DNA of 20,577 nt. Source: a virus. Taxonomy: Duplodnaviria > Heunggongvirae > Uroviricota > Caudoviricetes. The DNA is taken from IMG/VR virus record IMGVR_UViG_2695420478_000010; one strand, written 5' to 3'. The stretch's first letter is position 1; every line of letters begins with the position of its first letter. Positions 1-8,107 of this stretch are shown piece after piece. Position numbers and translations under genes: made by a program. The notes beneath the pieces were generated by a model that was given only the letters and a program-made list of their open reading frames with translations, had not been told where the DNA came from and ran no database searches.

Positions 1-214
1 CATAAGTGCGATCGACCGCCTTTTTCAGGTCTCCGTAATTATCCGGCGGCTCCGGTGGCCTCTGTGCCTTCCTGGAACATTCCAGCCGTCGCATCGTGAT
101 GTGATGCCGTTCCTTGTCTGTCTCCACCAGCATCATGACTTCACCCCATCGCGCCGCCGCCCTCCGGTAAAATCCTTTCGCTTCGAGTTCTTCCGCTATG
201 CGGTCATGTACCAT
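1..214 (-). CDS. Partial ORF (N-terminal 71 codons, continues past window start), PerC-like regulator family suspected
   Basis: Open frame from ATG at 214 to position 1 with GGGGGTGA RBS between it and the SSB stop; motif AEELEAKGFYRRAAARW resembles the PerC family signature as I recall it. Confidence 0.4.
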   Translation of the reverse strand, partial: MVHDRIAEELEAKGFYRRAAARWGEVMMLVETDKERHHITMRRLECSRKAQRPPEPPDNYGDLKKAVDRTY

Positions 215-224
215 CGTCACCCCC

Positions 225-635
225 TCAGAACGGAATATCATCACCGTAAGGGTCATCGCCTCCCGCTGGTGGCTGATTACCCTGTGCGCCTGTGGTTTTG
301 CGTCTGTTCCCGCCAGGACGTGCCGCACGGGCACTGATTACGCTGTCTGCAATAACCTGATAACCCTGACGCGTCTCCCCGTTCTGTCCGGTCCACTGGC
401 TGACCTGCATCGTGCCGGATACGCTGGCAACGTCGCCTTTTTGATGTTTAGCCAGGAAGTCGGCCTGCTTACCAAATGCGATGACCGATAGCCATAACGT
501 CGCCTGTCCGTCCTGTGCCTGACTGCATGGCAGTGATACCGCCATACGCGCCAGCGTCATCGGTGTACCCTTGCTGGTCTGTTTTACCTGCGGGTCGTCC
601 ACCAGCCGCCCGTAAGCTGCAATTTGTGCTGTCAT
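225..635 (-). CDS. ssb: Single-stranded DNA-binding protein (SSB) encoded by the element
   Basis: 136-aa ORF with GAGGTGG RBS; glycine-rich C-terminal region ending in the acidic tail DDIPF characteristic of bacterial and phage SSBs. Confidence 0.8.
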   Translation of the reverse strand: MTAQIAAYGRLVDDPQVKQTSKGTPMTLARMAVSLPCSQAQDGQATLWLSVIAFGKQADFLAKHQKGDVASVSGTMQVSQWTGQNGETRQGYQVIADSVISARAARPGGNRRKTTGAQGNQPPAGGDDPYGDDIPF

Positions 636-644
636 ATTGCCACC

Positions 645-950
645 TCAGTGAAGCGATCCGGCGTTATTCTTTTTCATCTCTTCCATCATTTTTTCAGTGA
701 GCATTACGCACTGAAAACCCATGTTTTTGATGTCTACGGGTTTCATGCCTTTGTCAGTGGATATCACAGGCAGAATATCCTGATACACATCGCGGTCAGG
801 GTAACTAAGCACACAAAGCGCCCATGATGCCACGGGTGAGGATCCTTCGTCTGTTTCAACCCACCAGCCTGGTGTAGCTGCGCTTATTTGCTGAATCGTG
901 ATCCGTCCGTTGTGCTTGTAAAGTTTTTCACCAAATTTTGGTTCGCTCAT
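645..950 (-). CDS. Hypothetical protein (101 aa)
   Basis: ORF with GGAGAG RBS; its ATG overlaps the stop of the upstream ORF (ATGA), indicating translational coupling. No recognisable motifs. Confidence 0.5.
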   Translation of the reverse strand: MSEPKFGEKLYKHNGRITIQQISAATPGWWVETDEGSSPVASWALCVLSYPDRDVYQDILPVISTDKGMKPVDIKNMGFQCVMLTEKMMEEMKKNNAGSLH

Positions 951-1198
951 GATTTCAACTCTCCGGTTTTAACGTTGATGGTTGTTACCTGTTCCGCTTC
1001 GGCAATCTCCCGTTCTGTCAACGTGGCAAAGTTTGCCGCTGCTGTGGTCATGAATGCGCTTATCAGGTCGGGATGTTCCTTCGCGTATCCTTCCCCTACG
1101 TGTCGGTCTATCGTTCTGATTGCCACCTTTAAGGCCAGCTCTGTTATATCTAACGCTTTATATTTCGGCTCTGTTCTGTCTCTGCGTGTTCTGGTCAT
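947..1198 (-). CDS. Hypothetical protein (about 83 aa from the ATG at 1198; the ORF track's longer start at 1231 lies in the AT-rich stretch)
   Basis: GAGGTGG RBS precedes the ATG at 1198; first gene downstream of the iteron cluster. Confidence 0.45.
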   Translation of the reverse strand: MTRTRRDRTEPKYKALDITELALKVAIRTIDRHVGEGYAKEHPDLISAFMTTAAANFATLTEREIAEAEQVTTINVKTGELKS

Positions 1199-1227
1199 TT
1201 GCCACCTCAATTTATATATATATAGAA

Positions 1228-1550
1228 ACATGTGCGGGTTATGCGGGTTATTGGGTTATCTTAGCGTGCTAACCATTTTTTACCCTTTTATATCAGCATG
1301 TTGCAAAACACCCTGTTTATTATTTGCTCACCACGTAACCCGCAAAACGCTCAAAATAACCCGCAAACGGGGTTTTTTCTGCGGGTTACGCATGACTGTC
1401 CGGTGTTACTTCAGTTATTCGCCTGCGGGTTATAATCGTGCTTTTGCGGGTTATAAATGCCCTTTTGCGGGTTACGTGCGGGTTATTGATTTCCTTTATA
1501 TTCATACACTTAATACACTTATACACAGGATAACCCGCATAACCCGCAAT
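1228..1550. repeat. Iteron cluster: about 12 copies of TGCGGGTTAY in both orientations; probable replication origin
   Basis: Copies at about 1233, 1243, 1380, 1424, 1445, 1466, 1478 (forward) and 1336, 1366, 1530, 1540 (reverse: TAACCCGCA), plus a degenerate copy near 1251; preceded by TATATATATATA at 1212-1225; immediately downstream of the primase gene. Confidence 0.6.
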
Positions 1551-1570
1551 TTTTTTCCTCACACAGGGGA

Positions 1571-3703
1571 TTAATCTTCATCATCAGGCTGGAACATCAG
1601 CACGTAAAAAACATGCTGCTTACCCCCAATCTTGCCCAGCGCCTTTTTTTTGTATCGGCGATCGCTTCCCTTCTCCAGCATTCCGGCAGCATCCAGGGCA
1701 CGCGCAAAATGCGCCGGATTAAATCCCTTCGCTATCTCACTCTCAAACACGTGCGGGAACGTGTAATAGCGCATCTCGTCATCTTCGTTGCGAATGCTCC
1801 CTTTTCTGTATCCGGCAAGCTCTTTAATCGGTAAATCACGCTCATCTGTATTGGGGTACGGAAGGTAGCGGCTAAACCCAAACGACGACAAAAACGCCTC
1901 AGCCTGTTCAACCATCTGTTTAAATTCCCTGTTACCCGTGCCGAACTCCTTCACCCAGGCATTAAAGTTATGCTGTATCGCGTCGCGGCATTCCTGCACG
2001 ACCCAGCCAGTTACATGACCGGAAAGCACAAGCGCGGCCTCCAGTATGGCGAAACGTTCACCCACGCGGTGGACCTGCTCGCCGTAACTCTCCGGTATCA
2101 GGTTGCGCCACCGTTCGCGGCATTCCCTTACCGTGTCCTTTGCCTCCTGCTGGTGGCCTGCCAGCCATTTAACCCACTCACGACCCGCCGCCCCGTGATT
2201 TGCTGTCCAGGCATCCTTTAACGCGTCAGCATGTTCCTTACCGTTGCTGTATTCGTGAAATTTCGTGGCTTTTTCCATCGGAACGTTAAGCAGTCGGACA
2301 AGCTGCCCCGCCTTAACTTTTATCCCCTCACTTTTGAGGAATGTCTCAACGTCCATTTCTCCGGTGCTGATTGCCACCGTTCGCCAGTGTTTGATCTCCC
2401 TGTTGCCGCCATCCTTCGCCCCCTGCAATTTCCCTGAACCGTTAAACAGCGTATAAGCAGACGTTGACACTTCCCGCGCATTTCCGGCCTGGCCTATCTC
2501 ATCCAGTGGTAAAAGCCCGTCATTATGGGCCTCGGCCTCATTGGCAATACCTAACGCCGTGCCGTACCAGGTCAGCCGCTGCGCGTCCGGCTCTCCCCAT
2601 AAACTTGATGCGATGTTCTGCGTGGTGGTCTTACCTGCCGATGACTGTTCGAAAAGATGCACCCCGAAGCCGTCAGCACCCACAAGGCCAATTAAAGGCG
2701 CTGCCAGTGACGTTGCCACACCCAGTATCATTGAGGCATTACCGCCAGCCAGCCGCGCCACGCTGTCGCGCCAGCCATCCGCCGTGCCCGCCACGGAATA
2801 ACCGTTAATCGCGGCGCTTTTTCCGGTAAACAGGATCGGTTTTTCAGATTCACCAATGATCGAACCGTCCGGCATGATGTACGCGCCAAAATGCCAGCCC
2901 GTTGTTGTGCTTAACTGCCATTCCTCATGGCTTCCGCTTAACTGCATCCAGTCCGCCAGGATTGCCCTGTATTTGCCGTTGGTTGTCACGTTCAGCCCGT
3001 GATCTTTAAGTAACCGCCAGCCGTCACGGTCGCCGATACCACCACACGGGATCGCCATTGTGATGACTTCATGGTTTGCGGTTTTTTTCCAGCGCATCAC
3101 GCGGTAATGCTCTTTACCGATCGTCCCCGTTCCCAGTAGTTCAAGCGGAGAACATAACCACGTCTCAGGCCGGATAATTTCGCCTGACTGCTTATCCACT
3201 TTGGGCGTTACCCAGAAAACACCATCGGCGCGACTTTCAACGCGTGGCTTTAATTCGTCATCGCTATGGCTTCCGGTATCTTTTTTCTTTACCGGAAACT
3301 CAATAACCAGACCATCAGAAAGATTCTGCCGCTCACGGGCCAGATATTCGCGCCAGTTCTCCACCTTCTGACCGTGCATACCCTCAGGATAAAAATTTGC
3401 ATCCTGTACACCAGCCGCCGCCAGCTTTTGACCAATCGCCTTGATCATTACTGGTGCAAGATGTCCGGCCCTGAATATGCGCACGGATTTTCTGCCTTCC
3501 GGCACAATTTGCAGCTTATCCAGTTCTGATAACTGCTGCTCCCCAAGCCACACAGGAGGCACATTATCGCCGGATGCGGGGCCGTCCTGCTCCTGCCACT
3601 GTTTTGCATGTGCCCACGCATCACTACCCGCGAAAATAATCACCTCTGTGTCTTTGTGTTTTATTCCGCGTGGCTGTTTTTTTACGTTCGGTGCCAGTTT
3701 CAT
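1571..3703 (-). CDS. P4-type primase/helicase (alpha-like replication protein, DUF927-type NTPase)
   Basis: 710-aa ORF with AGGGGT RBS; Walker A-like FEQSSAGKTTTQ and Walker B-like LLPLDEIG; start overlaps the upstream ORF stop (ATGA). Confidence 0.88.
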   Translation of the reverse strand: MKLAPNVKKQPRGIKHKDTEVIIFAGSDAWAHAKQWQEQDGPASGDNVPPVWLGEQQLSELDKLQIVPEGRKSVRIFRAGHLAPVMIKAIGQKLAAAGVQDANFYPEGMHGQKVENWREYLARERQNLSDGLVIEFPVKKKDTGSHSDDELKPRVESRADGVFWVTPKVDKQSGEIIRPETWLCSPLELLGTGTIGKEHYRVMRWKKTANHEVITMAIPCGGIGDRDGWRLLKDHGLNVTTNGKYRAILADWMQLSGSHEEWQLSTTTGWHFGAYIMPDGSIIGESEKPILFTGKSAAINGYSVAGTADGWRDSVARLAGGNASMILGVATSLAAPLIGLVGADGFGVHLFEQSSAGKTTTQNIASSLWGEPDAQRLTWYGTALGIANEAEAHNDGLLPLDEIGQAGNAREVSTSAYTLFNGSGKLQGAKDGGNREIKHWRTVAISTGEMDVETFLKSEGIKVKAGQLVRLLNVPMEKATKFHEYSNGKEHADALKDAWTANHGAAGREWVKWLAGHQQEAKDTVRECRERWRNLIPESYGEQVHRVGERFAILEAALVLSGHVTGWVVQECRDAIQHNFNAWVKEFGTGNREFKQMVEQAEAFLSSFGFSRYLPYPNTDERDLPIKELAGYRKGSIRNEDDEMRYYTFPHVFESEIAKGFNPAHFARALDAAGMLEKGSDRRYKKKALGKIGGKQHVFYVLMFQPDDED

Positions 3704-3999
3704 TTTTTACCCCTGAATACGTTAAGCATCTTTTTTATTTCCTGAATATTGGCGCGTGCTTTCTCCCTGCTGGTTGGTTTACTGCGGGGCGCTGCCTGTA
3801 CCAGAGAAAAATCACGCCGGAACTGATAAACAGGCATCACGCAATCATATTCGTAGCCTTCACGATGGTAGGTTACGCGCCGTTCCTCCACGCCCTTAAT
3901 CATTACCGTGCCGCCGTACTTATCGCGGTAAATATCCCCGCACATGAATTTAGTGCGAGTTTTGCCGCTGGCAGTTAAGCCAGAATATTTAAGTTTCAT
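3700..3999 (-). CDS. Hypothetical protein (99 aa), translationally coupled to the primase
   Basis: GGAGAA RBS; stop overlaps the primase ATG. No recognisable motifs. Confidence 0.55.
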   Translation of the reverse strand: MKLKYSGLTASGKTRTKFMCGDIYRDKYGGTVMIKGVEERRVTYHREGYEYDCVMPVYQFRRDFSLVQAAPRSKPTSREKARANIQEIKKMLNVFRGKK

Positions 4000-4004
4000 T
4001 ATTT

Positions 4005-4268
4005 TTATTCTCCGATAGCGTGACCTGATAAGCCGTTAATCTTCTCTGATATGCTCTCTATTTTGCTGGTTGAACTATCCAGTAATTCAGAAACGGCTAA
4101 TATTAATCTTGCGGTTGATTCATCGCGTTCATTATTCGCCAGCGACTGAAGCCACATGTTCATTACTTCGTTCGCTGCGTTGTTTAAAGATATTGCGCTG
4201 TTGGCAAGGCTTCTTAATTCACTGGTCGCCAGTTTGTTATTGTTCATAGCGTTTAAATCTCTCATCAA
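4005..4268 (-). CDS. Hypothetical protein (about 86-87 aa; start TTG 4268 or ATG 4265)
   Basis: ORF in the coupled operon; weak RBS, start uncertain. Confidence 0.45.
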   Translation of the reverse strand: MMRDLNAMNNNKLATSELRSLANSAISLNNAANEVMNMWLQSLANNERDESTARLILAVSELLDSSTSKIESISEKINGLSGHAIGE

Positions 4269-4428
4269 TTAACCACAGCGCAACACTTCCAGAAAGTTTT
4301 GCCAGAAGGCCAGCTAATGCGGATATATCACCATCATTTAATTTATCAGGGTATACCTCAAGAAGGCGGCAAATAATTTCTGTCTGGTGCGCACGTTCAG
4401 CGGCTTCGTGTAATGTAATTTCCTTCAT
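4237..4428 (-). CDS. Hypothetical protein (63 aa)
   Basis: Strong AAGAGGTG RBS; ATG overlaps the stop of the upstream ORF (TAATG). Confidence 0.5.
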   Translation of the reverse strand: MKEITLHEAAERAHQTEIICRLLEVYPDKLNDGDISALAGLLAKLSGSVALWLIDERFKRYEQ

Positions 4429-4613
4429 TAATGCACCTCTTTTAATTCATACACTGCTGAAATAATGACTTGTGATAAGCCATATTCTGATGATTCGCTT
4501 CTCACCGCAGCAATAGCCGTCTGAACATTAACAGCCTTCACATTCTGAGCGATACCAATTGTGTGGCCTAGTGGGTTAACAGCGCTGGCAAATACACGGA
4601 AGGTTTTAAGCAT
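4428..4613 (-). CDS. Hypothetical protein (about 61 aa from ATG at 4613), first gene of the primase operon
   Basis: GGGGGTG RBS 4 nt upstream of the ATG at 4613; the track's longer start at 4655 has no RBS. Confidence 0.45.
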   Translation of the reverse strand: MLKTFRVFASAVNPLGHTIGIAQNVKAVNVQTAIAAVRSESSEYGLSQVIISAVYELKEVH

Positions 4614-4937
4614 GGCACACCCCCTGACGAATACGGGCGGCAAATACAGCAACACAACCTGACGGGCAACGGCTACGCGCTTCGCGTTCCGTCCAGGCGG
4701 TTACGTGGATGATTTGAGATTCTCCGGCACTCAGTGCCAGAAAACGCCACACAAAGGCCGTTTGTGTGTGTACAAGGTGTGGTATATGATTTACAGCAAC
4801 CATAACGGCTCCTAGTTTACGTTGTTGGTTAGAAGCACTGCGAGTGGTAATGACACTTGCGGGGCTTTGCTTTTTTAAGTGCTCTTGTGTTAAGGTGACC
4901 ACCTAACAATAGAAAGGCTAATTCAATAGGTGACCAC

Positions 4938-5129
4938 TTGTCAACAATCAAACGCGATAAAAGCCCTAAAGGGGACGGGCAATCCCCACAATTCAGAATG
5001 CGAATTTCTCCAGAGCTAAAAGAGCAATTCGATAAAGAAGCACAGAGCGACGGCATAAGCCTAGCCAACTGGCTTAAAGAGTTGGGGCGTACTGAACTAA
5101 AGCGGCGCGGTATAGAACCCAAAGGATAA
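4938..5129 (+). CDS. Small ribbon-helix-helix-like protein, putative regulator (TTG start at 4938 or ATG at 4998)
   Basis: AGGTGA RBS 4 nt before the TTG; segment RMRISPELKEQFDKEAQSDGISLANWLKELGR fits an RHH (Arc/CopG-like) pattern; divergent from the primase operon. Confidence 0.4.
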   Translation: MSTIKRDKSPKGDGQSPQFRMRISPELKEQFDKEAQSDGISLANWLKELGRTELKRRGIEPKG

Positions 5130-5171
5130 AAACTATCAGCGCCGTGGTGTGAGGTATTACGGCGCATTGCT

Positions 5172-5360
5172 ATGCAGGACAACACAATGACCGATAAAGA
5201 ATTGACCAAAACATTATCACCGGCACGGAAAAGACGGCGCAGAAAGATAGAGCATGAATCAGAAAGATTCGCGCCATGTGCTTTTGCCCTTGAGCAATTC
5301 CTTAAAGAGTACAGGGAAAAGCGCTCATTGCAGGTATGGCAACGAACTGAACCAGACTGA
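5172..5360 (+). CDS. Possible small basic protein (62 aa), doubtful
   Basis: ORF following the RHH-like ORF; poor RBS; contains a KRRRRK basic patch. Confidence 0.25.
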   Translation: MQDNTMTDKELTKTLSPARKRRRRKIEHESERFAPCAFALEQFLKEYREKRSLQVWQRTEPD

Positions 5361-5424
5361 TAGCATTGCCCACCAGCCAACAACCTGGTATTCTGGATAT
5401 GCTCAAGTTTAGTGTTATGCCACT

Positions 5425-5453
5425 GGCGGCCCTCTGCGGTCGCCTTTGTTTTA
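5425..5453 (+). terminator. Candidate rho-independent terminator for the plus-strand small ORFs
   Basis: GGCGGCC / GGTCGCC stem (one G-U pair), 6-nt loop, then TTTGTTTTA. Confidence 0.35.
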
Positions 5454-5471
5454 TGTGTCATATGCCCCCCT

Positions 5472-5696
5472 TTACGCTGCCTTGCCTGAATTAATACGAT
5501 CCCGGCTTTTAACCCATTCCATAACCTCGGAAAGCAGCCAACCTACTGAACGACCACCCAGATTACGGCGTGACGGGAAATTCCCTTTTTTCTCCAGTTC
5601 GTAGCGTGTAGTGCGGCACACTCCTGTTAACTTACGGCATTCATCCTCACGGATTACGCGATCTGATAGTGATTGAAATTGTGTATTTTGATTCAT
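5472..5696 (-). CDS. alpA: AlpA-family phage transcriptional regulator / excisionase-like HTH protein
   Basis: 74-aa ORF; central region LTGVCRTTRYELEKKGNFP and C-terminal SVGWLLSEVMEWV match the AlpA/Vis (HTH_17) pattern. Confidence 0.7.
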   Translation of the reverse strand: MNQNTQFQSLSDRVIREDECRKLTGVCRTTRYELEKKGNFPSRRNLGGRSVGWLLSEVMEWVKSRDRINSGKAA

Positions 5697-5731
5697 AAAA
5701 AAACGTCCTCGAACGTTGCCGAACGAGGACG
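5697..5731 (-). terminator. Stem-loop plus T-run on the minus strand, directly abutting the alpA start codon
   Basis: CGTCCTCG (5704-5711) pairs with CGAGGACG (5724-5731), 12-nt loop, followed on the minus strand by TTTTTT and then the alpA ATG. Confidence 0.5.
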
Positions 5732-5787
5732 ATTCTAGGCGGTAGTAAAACGCCGTTTGTGTGATATCACACTACCAGCACGTGATA

Positions 5788-6561
5788 TCACTTTTTACGT
5801 TTTTGTTGAGATTCACGCCCCAAATACTTTTGCCATGTCTGCCAATGTGTTTTTGGAAATTCTATCCCTCTGGATGCAGCTATAGAATCAATTAAATCTG
5901 CTATTTTAGGTAATGATTCCGTGTCCAGGTCTACATCACCCATTTCTGGAATAAGTTTAATTAAAGAGTAAATAACCTCATTCCTTTTTGACGATGCTTT
6001 TGGGCTATCTTCTGTTATCTTCGGGAAGTCTCCCGTATTTTTTATATTATCTAAATCACTAGCCATCACACACAAATAGTTAACATCAAATTCATAACCA
6101 CCCTTACAAAAAACATACATGAGATTATCATCACCATACTTATTCGTAAGATGAGAACATTTTATATATTGTCTCATGCTAAATTCGACATCAGCAAAAA
6201 CATATGCCGGAGTATAATAAAACCCTGATAAGCTGCTAACATAATAACATTTGATAGAATTCCCTACAGGACCAATAATGGCACTATCTAAAAATTCAGT
6301 GTCACCAGTTAAACCAACTGTAAAATTACTTCCAAAAACAGCAGATTCATCATTGAAAGGATATTTTATTAATTCTTCCTCATTACAACCATTGATAAAA
6401 TGACATAATGAAAAATTGAATTTTTTAGCATCAATTTTTGGTATATATACAGAAATATTAAGAGCACCTATATATGCGTAATGATAAAGATCTTTTATTG
6501 CACAGCCTAACTTTTCTGCCGCTTCAGGTAACGGATAATAGAGTCTTTTAGGTAATTTCAT
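5788..6561 (-). CDS. Hypothetical protein (257 aa), AT-rich accessory gene translationally coupled to the integrase
   Basis: Long uninterrupted ORF in visibly AT-rich DNA; GAAGGTGG RBS inside the integrase 3' end; ATG overlaps the integrase TGA (ATGA). No motif I can recognise. Confidence 0.7.
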   Translation of the reverse strand: MKLPKRLYYPLPEAAEKLGCAIKDLYHYAYIGALNISVYIPKIDAKKFNFSLCHFINGCNEEELIKYPFNDESAVFGSNFTVGLTGDTEFLDSAIIGPVGNSIKCYYVSSLSGFYYTPAYVFADVEFSMRQYIKCSHLTNKYGDDNLMYVFCKGGYEFDVNYLCVMASDLDNIKNTGDFPKITEDSPKASSKRNEVIYSLIKLIPEMGDVDLDTESLPKIADLIDSIAASRGIEFPKTHWQTWQKYLGRESQQKRKK

Positions 6562-7778
6562 TTGGCCACCTTCAGCATAACAATATTTTCATGATTTCCA
6601 GCCAGCACATCGAGGCGCTCAACCCACAGATTCAGAGCGTCCCGCTTCGCCTGTAAATAGCGTGAATGGTTATAGGTTTTTTGCTGACCGGGCATCTGAT
6701 GCGCTGTGATGTGCTCCACGATATGCGGATCGACACCTAAATCGTTCAGCATCGTTGTAAACGTGTGGCGAAAGTCATGCAGTGACCAATGTTCCTGGTT
6801 AAGCCGCTTATGCGCATTTCGCCCATATTGCGCTACCGTGGTATCTTTTTTCAGTTCTCCGAGCAATAACCCTGTATGCCGGTTCTGATCCACCAGCTTC
6901 TGAATGAACGGCAAAATGCCATCGGGGATTGGCCTGAATATCGTTACCTTCGTTTTGCTGTGCTCTTTTGGCACTGTCCACAACATTTCTTTCAGATCCC
7001 ATTCTTTGATCTCTGAAAGTCTGACCTCTGCAGTTCTGCACCCGAACACAATCAGCAAGCGCATTAACGCGCTGTAGTAAGGCGCGAACACATCACCATC
7101 AATAGCGCGTAAAATTTCCTTTAATTCGCTGTTACTGTGCACCCTCTCGCGAATTTCTGCTCTCTTACCCACATCGCTGACGATCAAATCGTCCAGGGCA
7201 TTACTGAACGCGTAGCGTCTCCTGCGGCAGAACTTTAGCGCCTGTTTGCAGGTTTGCATGACGTGCCCCGCTGCTACTGGTGCTTTTTTTCGTACACGGT
7301 CAAAACATGCGATCCACTGCCTTGTGTCGCATTTATCAAGAGGAATTGCCCCTATATGGCAAATGATGTGCTTATCCATACGTTGCACCAGCTTTATGTA
7401 GTCTTTGCGGTTATCCTTCGCATATTCCTCCAGCCAGTAGTTAATCGCCTCCTTCACCGTAACGGGTTTTAGCGCTTCCTGTACTGTGGCGCACAACTCA
7501 TAACGGGGGTTTTTACCCTCAGCCAGCCATGCCCGGCACTGTGCGCGTTTTTCCCTTGCAGCTTTCAGCGACAATTCAGGGTAAGCCCCCAGCTTTAACC
7601 GCTCTGCGGCAACCTCACGGCCTCCCGTTCGGTACCGGAAATACCAGGTTAATTTTCCGCCTTTTGAGTGTTTAATCTCCAGCCCGCCCCCGTCGGAGTA
7701 AAAACGCTCTTTTTCTGCCTGGACAGCCGCCAATTTTTTTAATGTCGAATCGCTCAGTTTGTTTAGTGCTTTTCCCAC
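6558..7778 (-). CDS. int: Tyrosine site-specific integrase, P4-like family (GTG start)
   Basis: 406-aa ORF with AAGAGGA RBS; N-terminal arm-binding-type region (GGGLEIKHSKGGKLTWYFRYR); C-terminal catalytic region LHDFRHTF ... HSRY. Confidence 0.92.
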   Translation of the reverse strand: MGKALNKLSDSTLKKLAAVQAEKERFYSDGGGLEIKHSKGGKLTWYFRYRTGGREVAAERLKLGAYPELSLKAAREKRAQCRAWLAEGKNPRYELCATVQEALKPVTVKEAINYWLEEYAKDNRKDYIKLVQRMDKHIICHIGAIPLDKCDTRQWIACFDRVRKKAPVAAGHVMQTCKQALKFCRRRRYAFSNALDDLIVSDVGKRAEIRERVHSNSELKEILRAIDGDVFAPYYSALMRLLIVFGCRTAEVRLSEIKEWDLKEMLWTVPKEHSKTKVTIFRPIPDGILPFIQKLVDQNRHTGLLLGELKKDTTVAQYGRNAHKRLNQEHWSLHDFRHTFTTMLNDLGVDPHIVEHITAHQMPGQQKTYNHSRYLQAKRDALNLWVERLDVLAGNHENIVMLKVAK

Positions 7779-7966
7779 TATCAGATCCTCTTTTCAGTCC
7801 TCCAGCCCCAAAAAACTGACCACACAACTGACCACACATTTCGTTGAAGCTCTACGAACAACGACGAACAATAACAAACAAGAAAACGCAACATTCCATT
7901 TAATATCAAATATATATCCAAACAACTACGAACAACCCCGAACCACAAAAAACACTAAATGAGAAA
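7779..7966. repeat. Element end region with direct repeats, candidate integrase arm-type sites (attR side)
   Basis: Perfect tandem AACTGACCACAC x2 (7814-7837); CTACGAACAAC at 7852-7862 and 7926-7936; extra ACGAACA at 7864-7870. Confidence 0.45.
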
Positions 7967-8018
7967 ATACGGGTATTTCTCAGCCTTCACGCAGAAGGGC
8001 ACCCCGAGTCGTTTGGTT
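7967..8018 (-). ncRNA. Truncated thiM TPP riboswitch aptamer (promoter-proximal arm only), interrupted by the element
   Basis: Minus strand reads AACCAAACGACTCGGGGTGCCCTTCTGCGTGAAGGCTGAGAAATACCCGTAT, matching the E. coli thiM aptamer as I recall it; the expected continuation CACCTGATCTGGATAATGCCAGCG is replaced by element sequence. Confidence 0.8.
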
Positions 8019-8041
8019 GCGATGATAAATCGCAGAGGAGG

Positions 8042-8070
8042 ATGGTAATGTCCAGCGCACCCGTTGTAAA
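8042..8070 (-). promoter_or_regulatory. Candidate thiM promoter (-35 TTTACA, 17-bp spacer, -10 TACCAT)
   Basis: Hexamers read on the minus strand just upstream of the riboswitch fragment; assigned by eye only. Confidence 0.3.
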
Positions 8071-8107
8071 CGAGGAAAAACGGCAGTTTTACAATCGCGT
8101 TAATAAA

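Follow-up and report, generated by a model that had tools for sequence, protein, structure and literature searches.

Gene organization of the element

The DNA analysed here (hereafter, the window) is a stretch of 20,577 nucleotides, and its genes and sites of interest are listed in Table 1. The left end of the window falls inside a PerC-family gene, of which 71 codons are present from the ATG at 214-212. The translated part covers positions 1-71 of the 90 in profile PF06069 and scores 119.6 bits against a cutoff of 22.6 bits, placing the product in the PerC family on sequence and bearing out the partial PerC-like ORF of the initial annotation; the full 90-aa gene of the relatives matches the same profile with E=9e-44. 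The neighbouring gene encodes an SSB of 136 aa, in agreement with the earlier reading from the letters, since both the profile searches (PF00436 across positions 4-101 of 104, 62.5 bits against a cutoff of 26 bits; TIGR00621, 58 against 53.95) and the C-terminal sequence, GGDDPYGDDIPF with its tail DDIPF, point to the same protein.

Table 1. Genes and sites of the element, with window coordinates and supporting matches
Feature	Position	Strand	Evidence
PerC-family (PchE-like) gene, first 71 of 90 codons, remainder off-window	1..214	-	Pfam PerC E=7.2e-35; DNA 100% identical to PerC of the E110019 cf-PICI
Satellite SSB: OB fold, short linker, acidic DDIPF tip	225..635	-	Pfam SSB E=4.2e-17; PHROG 44 E=6.6e-41; PDB SSBs
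orf101, no assigned function; 318-bp insertion relative to EcCIEDL933/Sp7	645..950	-	phrog_27268 E=1e-69
orf83/94, no assigned function	947..1231	-	phrog_1231 E=4.6e-51
Predicted replication origin: 11 x TGCGGGTTA, both orientations (1233-1548); A+T-rich run 1207-1231	1207..1548	.	
Rep: DUF927 AAA+ helicase, C-terminal HTH-like predicted origin-recognition domain, 142-aa N-terminal alpha/beta domain	1571..3703	-	
RgdR orthologue (DUF4222), CGD variant	3700..3999	-	Pfam DUF4222 E=5e-23; 96% identity to Sakai ECs1581 (PMC3378721)
orf80, orf63, orf61: small conserved ORFs of the leftward operon	4005..4655	-	PHROGs 5796, 1478, 3672; 100% identical to L001
Icd-like host cell division inhibitor domain protein	4606..4902	-	NCBIfam phage_ICD_like E=1.4e-17
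Small antisense ORF, weak HicB-family match (PF05534)	4938..5129	+	Pfam HicB E=4.9e-4, below cutoff
AlpA regulator/excisionase, PICI induction switch	5472..5696	-	Pfam Phage_AlpA E=3.4e-16; 46% identity to P4 orf88/vis
orf257, 30% G+C, in the int-alpA accessory slot	5788..6561	-	no family match
Tyrosine integrase	6558..7778	-	Pfam Arm-DNA-bind_3 and Phage_integrase
Integrase-side attachment repeat, 70 bp, right edge of the element	7813..7882	.	same 70-mer flanks the element in L001

A homologue of orf83/94 was located upstream of the SSB gene in every E. coli satellite inspected, directly adjoining it where orf101 is missing; orf101 itself is present in the relative L001 and absent from L002, L026 and L027. 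The variable segment around the antisense ORF resembles Sakai Sp7, not L001. For orf257 no match was found in Pfam, PHROG, NCBIfam or PADLOC, and the PADLOC scan of SSB, PerC, orf101, orf83 and the antisense ORF was likewise negative.

Rep and the iteron origin

The 11 exact copies of the 9-bp repeat compare with 0.17 expected in the whole window, and the iterons noted in the initial annotation, just downstream of an ORF named there as a primase, are therefore real. The ORF is also real, but its product of 710 aa is a Rep helicase (DUF927, E=1.4e-48) for which domain searches detected no primase, Toprim or Zn-ribbon domain, so that the Zn-ribbon and Toprim with acidic E...DxD residues that characterize primases of the DnaG and P4-alpha types are not found. 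Rep matched PDB entries 8tch, "Pathogenicity island protein" (E=2.5e-12), and 5dgk (E=2.5e-3), and, below the respective cutoffs, HTH_56 (E=7e-4) and NCBIfam Cch1 (E=3e-10). As judged from these comparisons, Rep has its relatives among the self-loading helicases of the SaPI Rep and SCCmec Cch kinds, sharing with them the DUF927 AAA+ core, the C-terminal HTH-like domain and an iteron origin placed immediately after the gene, although sequence similarity is low and stays below family cutoffs. In contrast to these proteins, Rep carries an N-terminal domain that is an enterobacterial module, elsewhere fused to D5_N, DUF5906 and AAA_25 helicases.

An array of 4-12 repeats of an 8-mer was detected within 500 bp after rep in all 19 Rep relatives scanned, the repeat sequences being lineage-specific. 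Identity of the iterons follows the identity of the Rep C-terminus, not that of the core. In L003 the core is 93% identical but the C-terminus only 42%, and the iteron is unrelated, whereas in L004 and L019 (core 72%, C-terminus 69%) the iteron differs by a single base. This covariation suggests that the C-terminal domain of Rep may recognize the iterons.

Classification as a capsid-forming PICI

Three further claims had been made from the letters: that no sid, delta or psu genes are seen in 8 kb, that the element may belong to a family other than P4, and that its class is ambiguous, with the SSB pointing towards plasmids, ICEs or full phages. The first two stand. When all P4 proteins were compared with window positions 1-8100 by tblastn, only int (21% identity) and orf88/vis, which is AlpA, gave matches. 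Alpha, epsilon, cI, sid, delta, psu, gop, beta and cII were unmatched (E<=1) in the window and in two complete relatives, and the 19-nt P4 cos, even with up to 3 mismatches allowed, could not be found in the window or in three complete relatives (L001, L002, L026). None of the hallmarks of a P4-like satellite (sid, delta, psu, epsilon, alpha and a P2/P4 cos) is present in the available sequence, and Rep is of the DUF927 type instead of the Zn-ribbon/Toprim plus D5_N type. P4 and the element do both have a tyrosine integrase of the P4 family and a regulator of the Vis/AlpA type, and the principle that an initiator binds short repeats within ori is common to them, and the older literature speaks of "P4 remnants" and of a "P4 alpha-like" replication gene (PMC3378721); even so, there is next to no chance that the element is a P4-type satellite.

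The third claim does not hold, because the closest relatives show, left of PerC, the architecture of EcCIEDL933, the experimentally defined prototype of capsid-forming PICIs (cf-PICIs) (10.1101/2022.09.08.507074). Window positions 1-5378 aligned with the EDL933/Sakai island at 98.9% identity in two pieces (about 5.1 kb aligned), the replication module being 98.9-100% identical to annotated copies; relative to Sakai Sp7, identity is 99.9% for the Rep protein and 99.7% for the 339-bp origin. The EDL933/Sakai island is 15.4 kb in length, and MCP, protease, portal, closure, connector, HNH, TerS and TerL lie left of its PerC gene. Strain 10671, in which the island also occupies the thiM/rcnR site, is 100% identical over window positions 640-4650 and 5470-7882 and carries the cf-PICI module left of PerC, as do E110019 and TOE17, with PerC DNA identical at 100% and 99.5%, respectively. 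In all five closest relatives (L001, L002/L028, L024, L026 and L027), one of them with 100% identical PerC DNA, the packaging module (HK97-type capsid, protease, portal, connectors, HNH, TerS and TerL) is directly left of PerC.

The cf-PICIs are described by integrase, regulation and replication modules in conserved order (10.1101/2025.02.11.637232), with a size of about 10-18 kb and with neither lysis genes nor a complete tail module. Integrase, alpA regulation and replication (Rep plus iterons, 1233-3703) follow in this conserved order here. No tail or lysis gene was found in window positions 1-7882, the left att of this copy lying beyond the window, and in L001, with 70-bp att repeats at a distance of 15,847 bp, tail and lysis genes are missing from the interval. 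We conclude that window positions 1-7882 very probably represent the integrase-proximal half of an EcCIEDL933-type cf-PICI inserted between thiM and rcnR, positions 1-3703 being its replication module plus two accessory genes. The island type is that of O-island 51, or CP-933C, of EDL933 and of Sakai Sp7, formerly a "cryptic prophage". The element class is unambiguous, being neither P4-type, plasmid-like nor ICE-like.

Since the window ends inside PerC, and such islands are mosaic, the packaging module is inferred from the relatives. The off-window half might instead be of the type in Nissle 1917 and PKF11, which do not form capsids: there the major capsid-like protein is another one, a head decoration protein and a connector accompany it, and TerS is the sole terminase subunit, portal and TerL being absent. 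In PKF11 such a module lies behind an integrase/att junction that shares 97-98% identity with the present one and occupies the same thiM/rcnR site, SSB and PerC being present too, and the window itself is a three-way mosaic. The leftmost 214 bases, in contrast, match the cf-PICI of E. coli E110019 without a difference but PKF11 at only 84%, the SSB is closer to E110019 (98.8%) than to PKF11 (95.6%), and all relatives with PerC identity above 94% have the cf-PICI module, making a left half of the Nissle/PKF11 type quite improbable. Among 5,426 complete E. coli genomes, none is collinear with the element end to end, the best coverage being 93% and the junction at most 98.6% identical.

That the element is plasmid- or ICE-like, or the inert remnant of a prophage, is very improbable. 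The iteron and initiator replicon together with an SSB could be read in this way, databases tag the island as "cryptic prophage, untypable", and some tblastn matches fall in records filed as plasmids. Against this, searches of the window ORFs with Pfam, PHROG and NCBIfam gave no relaxase, T4SS, partition protein or plasmid Rep family, and all ORFs are intact. The 98%-identical "plasmid" SSB match that was inspected turned out to be a piece of chromosome of 32.6 kb, carrying pntAB, ydgH and mdtJI, into which a cf-PICI is integrated, and the prototype was induced, replicated and transferred with the helpers HK106 and HK446 (10.1101/2022.09.08.507074). The earlier phrase "plasmid-like in replication" applies loosely, in the sense of an initiator acting with an iteron origin, as shown for the related EcCICFT073, where pri-rep-ori drives autonomous replication after excision (PMC6092414), but not as an element class.

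Comparison with known islands

The order Icd, small ORFs, RgdR, Rep, ori, orf83, SSB and PerC is the same in EcCIEDL933, and the iterons are identical. The two islands differ in the integrase (68% aa identity), the alpA region and the att site (thiM/rcnR here, phoQ/roxA in EcCIEDL933). Additional genes are present here between orf83 and SSB (orf101) and between int and alpA (orf257), the SSB tip is DDIPF instead of the DGIPF of Sakai, and RgdR has CGD instead of the RGD of EcCIEDL933. The classical Gram-negative PICIs (EcCICFT073, EcCIED1a, Nissle 1917 and PKF11) share the int-alpA-rep-ori backbone, RgdR, SSB after the origin and often PerC (PMC3378721, PMC6092414), but, unlike cf-PICIs, are without portal, TerL and the HK97 capsid set, and several of them have a D5/DUF5906-type primase-helicase in contrast to the DUF927 protein here. 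EcCIEDL933-type islands make their own capsid, whereas P4 resizes that of its helper.

The SSB and PerC-like genes are genuine, and their finding is an ordinary one because both were already annotated in a well-known E. coli satellite, the SSB and PchE of the island being on record since 2011. PerC and RgdR are usual PICI cargo (PMC6092414, PMC11773190, PMC3378721). The PerC (PchE-like) gene is not part of the replication machinery but one of the regulators that Gram-negative PICIs typically carry as accessories; according to the statement in PMC11773190 that cites Porter 2005, the PerC-like genes of EcCIEDL933 and EcCICFT073 had no effect on LEE1 fusions. A role for PerC as obligatory activator of the capsid operon was considered but is not supported, as the cf-PICI relatives L004, L008, L009 and L018 have the capsid module and an unrelated ORF of about 100 aa in place of PerC.

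The SSB as an optional accessory of the origin

The SSB clade is present in about 23% of complete E. coli genomes, its context being a satellite in all seven cases examined, and is common among E. coli satellites (PMC3378721). A search of 50,697 phage records gave no match exceeding 35% identity, and none came from an enterobacterial phage. For this clade, the use of an SSB as a pointer to plasmids, ICEs or full phages therefore fails, and acquisition of the gene from a phage or plasmid was rejected on the same records together with the misfiled chromosomal fragment described above.

The SSB is missing from 17 of 20 species-level Rep relatives and is therefore dispensable for such a replicon. 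In the three lineages that have it, the SSB-PerC pair comes just after the origin. The position is constant even where the initiators are unrelated, DUF927 here and DUF5906/D5-type in Nissle, PKF11 and D17EC0246. The SSB is an optional accessory adjoining the origin. The coding strand from rep to PerC showed no terminator-like site, and promoter and terminator scans of positions 1-1700 performed no better than shuffles. Compensation by the SSB for a Rep without primase was also considered and rejected: the gene accompanies a full Zn-ribbon/Toprim-DUF927 protein in Rahnella (L015) and the D5-type primase-helicases of Nissle and PKF11, and is missing in six relatives sharing the short N-terminal domain of the present Rep.

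In the alignment of Escherichia satellite copies the IPF of the tip is conserved, the residue before it being variable (DDIPF, DGIPF, DNIPF, DEIPF). Across seven copies the OB fold has 60 invariant columns, as would be expected of a working binder of single-stranded DNA. The SSB might nevertheless have its main target in the helper phage or in the defences of the host, for instance as a competitor of the SSB of helper or host, or by acting as a decoy for, or trigger of, defence systems that sense SSB. Its optional occurrence, independent of initiator type, the absence of close relatives from the phage collection and the differing tip residue would all fit such a role, but the constant place next to the origin, the strongly conserved OB fold, the negative PADLOC scan and the lack of interference of EcCIEDL933 with its helpers (10.1101/2022.09.08.507074) argue against it, and we regard it as rather unlikely. 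It is likewise unlikely that the SSB, of a clade so far seen in satellites only, is a specific factor for manipulating helper or host instead of a simple supplement to host SSB; were this so, it might redirect host SSB-interacting proteins to the island or modulate SSB-sensing defences. In the PICI and OI-51 literature searched, we found no experiment on the SSB of any PICI.

Proposed life cycle and implications

For the cf-PICI reading, the following life cycle can be proposed. A helper phage would turn on alpA, and AlpA would direct excision by Int at the 70-bp att as well as expression of the leftward operon. Rep would recognize the iterons through its C-terminal domain, melt the adjacent A+T-rich DNA and load itself, and the excised circle would be copied by the host replisome. 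The island SSB, probably co-transcribed downstream of the origin, would coat the unwound strands and could engage the host proteins that bind SSB through its acidic tip of the E. coli type, adding to the host SSB supply while the island replicates in a burst. The amplified DNA would finally be packaged by the island HNH, TerS and TerL into island-made small capsids, to which helper tails are given. Helper induction, the requirement for alpA, replication and capsid formation were shown elsewhere for the near-identical prototype EcCIEDL933; Rep-iteron recognition and the part of the SSB in this cycle are our inference.

For annotation, the stretch might be taken for an unusual relative of P4 or for a replicon of plasmid type, but it belongs to a characterized cf-PICI as its replication half. 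For curation, the gene usually labelled "DNA primase" at this place is a Rep helicase without a detectable primase domain, and SSB plus PerC beside an iteron origin is a signature of enterobacterial PICIs, not of plasmids. Islands of this family spread widely, making their own capsids and borrowing only the tails of phages.

Organization of the element

All genes of the element except one small antisense ORF are encoded on the minus strand. Past the 70-bp sequence at its integrase-side end the chromosome resumes with rcnR, rcnA and yeh fimbrial genes. PerC is located downstream of SSB, its ATG being separated from the SSB gene by a gap of 10 bases.

Features of the element within the window
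Feature	Position	Strand	Description
PerC-family ORF	ATG at 214-212, exits left window end	-	71 codons; Pfam PerC
SSB	225-635	-	136 aa; Pfam PF00436, TIGR00621, PHROG 44
orf101	645-950	-	upstream of SSB; no function by annotation; phrog_27268
orf83	947-1231	-	upstream of SSB; no function by annotation
A+T-rich run	1207-1231		
Iteron stretch	between orf83 and Rep		340 bp, non-coding; 11 exact copies of TGCGGGTTA
Rep ('primase' of the initial annotation)	1571-3703	-	710 aa; Pfam DUF927
RgdR-type gene	3700-3999	-	DUF4222
Small ORFs, Icd-like gene, alpA, tyrosine integrase	right of Rep		
Small antisense ORF	4938-5129	+	alpA-icd gap; weak HicB-family match (Pfam PF05534)
orf257	5788-6561	-	between int and alpA; 257 aa, 30% G+C
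Integrase-side element end	7813-7882		70-bp sequence

orf101 forms a 318-bp insertion between orf83 and SSB relative to EcCIEDL933, E110019 and TOE17, and among the loci inspected it is common only to the window and strain 10671. None of Pfam, PHROG, NCBIfam and PADLOC matched orf257, which occupies a known accessory-gene slot of phage-inducible chromosomal islands (PICIs). Strain 10671 has a copy with 100% identity, and the ORF occurs as well in PKF11 and, at 30% identity, in a capsid-forming PICI (cf-PICI) of Pantoea, but not in EcCIEDL933. Within the backbone, variation is greatest in the alpA-icd segment, where relatives carry a YlcI/YnfO-family gene in place of the antisense ORF.

The element is a probable mosaic capsid-forming PICI

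In a megablast search of 5,426 complete E. coli genomes, window 1-5378 matched EDL933 and Sakai with 98.9% identity over about 5.1 kb, in two pieces, orf101 being absent from both strains. The match lies inside a 15.4-kb island annotated as prophage Sp7/CP-933C, in which the genes for major capsid protein, HK97 protease, portal, head closure, connector, HNH, TerS and TerL are located to the left of PerC, while tail and lysis genes are absent. This island is known as EcCIEDL933 and is the cf-PICI prototype established by experiment; the helpers HK106 and HK446 induce it through alpA, after which it replicates, makes its own small capsids and takes only tails from the helper (10.1101/2022.09.08.507074).

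Segment-wise blastn indicated a three-way mosaic: strain 10671 matches window 640-4650 and 5470-7882 with 100% identity, about 4650-5380 is closest to Sakai Sp7 (99.6%), and 1-640 is 99-100% identical to the E110019 and TOE17 islands. No collinear match to the whole island was found among the 5,426 genomes. The left end of the window falls inside PerC, and the packaging module is thus read from the islands of relatives, themselves mosaic; every mosaic-donor island is a cf-PICI that has this packaging module to the left of PerC, and so is the island on a piece of chromosome wrongly filed as a plasmid. That the left half is instead a Nissle 1917-type module, which forms no capsids, is very unlikely: PKF11 does combine such a module with an integrase/att junction nearly identical to that of the window, but identity between its PerC and the window PerC is only 84%, whereas the window PerC DNA is 100% identical to E110019 and 99.5% to TOE17. 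The element belongs, as a mosaic, to a satellite family that is known and has been characterised by experiment, and the ambiguity of class in the initial annotation disappeared once relatives were examined.

Two perfect direct copies of the 70-bp end sequence, 15,847 bp apart, bound the island of strain 10671. An integrase-bearing island occupies the thiM/rcnR intergenic site in at least 72 of the complete E. coli genomes, and one integrase/att module there carries different satellites, a cf-PICI in strain 10671 and a Nissle-type PICI in PKF11. At the terminase-distal end of the 10671 island (6466-7021 of that locus, outside the window), the interval from the left att to the last gene contains five copies of a hairpin-bearing 44-nt repeat, CCTCCTCAAATTGAGG...ATCAGTGGGTTAG; they may be a site related to packaging or recombination.

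Two other classes were ruled out. When all P4 proteins were compared with window 1-8100 and with a pair of complete relatives, matches were limited to int (21%) and orf88/vis (46%, corresponding to AlpA); alpha, epsilon, cI, sid, delta, psu, gop, beta and cII did not match, in line with the earlier failure to see sid, delta or psu, and the 19-nt P4 cos end was absent at up to 3 mismatches from the window and three complete relatives. The element is therefore not a P4-type satellite, and the initial annotation was right to suspect a different family. The suggested affinity to plasmids or ICEs was not upheld, since no relaxase, T4SS, partition or plasmid Rep family was detected among the window ORFs with Pfam, PHROG and NCBIfam.

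Rep and the iteron origin

The supposed primase is a Rep helicase. Pfam detected DUF927 (E=1.4e-48) and, below threshold, a C-terminal Cch HTH domain, but neither a primase or Toprim domain nor a Zn-ribbon. On inspection, non-acidic residues occupy the canonical E and DxD positions, and primase activity was therefore treated as unsupported. Among solved structures, 8tch ('Pathogenicity island protein', E=2.5e-12) comes closest, followed by the SCCmec helicase 5dgk, and the NCBIfam Cch1 model matched weakly. Residues 1-142 constitute a separate module, fused in database proteins to DUF927, D5_N/DUF5906 or AAA_25 helicases and replaced by Zn-ribbon plus Toprim in relatives from Klebsiella, Rahnella and Serratia. 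Some database proteins (P0046, P0049, P0053) carry this module fused directly to SSB or PerC, and look like deletion derivatives that have lost helicase and origin.

The iterons were confirmed, the 11 exact copies of TGCGGGTTA lying in both orientations against 0.17 expected over the whole window. Each of the 19 Rep relatives scanned, which belong to other Enterobacterales species, has one 8-mer present 4-12 times within 500 bp past the rep stop codon, its sequence varying by lineage. The iteron follows the identity of the C-terminal 110 residues of Rep, not that of the helicase core: E. albertii Rep (core 93%, C-terminus 42% identical) has an unrelated iteron, and Winslowiella and Tenebrionibacter Rep (core 72-73%, C-terminus 69%) have one differing by a single base. 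From these comparisons, Rep and the iterons are predicted to be a cognate pair. Downstream of rep in several Serratia, Rahnella and Apirhabdus loci (L014, L016, L022, L015), a conserved ORF set (MSQNWMRHFEL...) replaces the capsid genes and may represent another satellite layout.

PerC and RgdR

The partial PerC-like ORF proved genuine, its 71 codons matching Pfam PerC at E=7.2e-35. SSB and PerC are both already annotated in this satellite family and are not new: Flockhart et al. noted an SSB gene conserved in the CFT073 and ED1a islands, and Fillol-Salom et al. (2018) found RgdR in all analysed E. coli PICIs and PerC variants in some. The PerC-like genes of EcCIEDL933 and EcCICFT073 reportedly had no effect on LEE1 fusions, and PerC of another PICI represses LEE (PMC11773190). 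Since cf-PICI relatives without PerC occur, PerC is cargo, and a role as required activator of the capsid operon was dismissed. In E110019 a terminator-like hairpin (consensus match only) follows PerC, which suggests that the packaging genes may form their own transcription unit. The DUF4222 gene is orthologous (96%) to RgdR/ECs1581, through which OI-51 regulates LEE/T3S and motility, and codes for C at residue 20, giving CGD in place of RGD; the commensal ED1a variant of RgdR, which does not activate T3S, has been reported to share this substitution (PMC3378721).

The satellite SSB

The SSB assignment was borne out by a nearly end-to-end family match (Pfam PF00436, E=4.2e-17), a score above the TIGR00621 cutoff and PHROG 44, and the protein ends in GDDIPF. 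Its DNA was matched in 1,244 of the 5,426 complete E. coli genomes, 719 of which cover at least 80% of the SSB-PerC stretch. The gene lies shortly after the PICI or cf-PICI origin in all seven contexts inspected, beside a DUF927 initiator in the window, E110019, TOE17 and EDL933, and beside a D5/DUF5906-type primase-helicase in Nissle, PKF11 and D17EC0246. Among 50,697 phage records, tblastn detected no relative above 35% identity and none in an enterobacterial phage.

Of 20 species-level Rep relatives, those in E. albertii and Rahnella are the only ones accompanied by the SSB, which is therefore an optional cassette and not a core part of the replicon; PerC follows it in both, adjoining in Rahnella and with one ORF between in E. 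albertii. Compensation by SSB for a missing primase was rejected because its presence is uncorrelated with the type of Rep N-terminus.

No experiment on the role of the satellite SSB was found in the papers searched. The OB fold is highly conserved among the copies, and the tip varies as DDIPF, DGIPF, DNIPF and DEIPF, with IPF constant in Escherichia. In E. coli SSB the acidic IPF tip is the docking point for many replication and repair proteins. An extra, host-compatible SSB from the island could supply its replication burst, and such a supplement would be the most economical reading of the satellite SSB.
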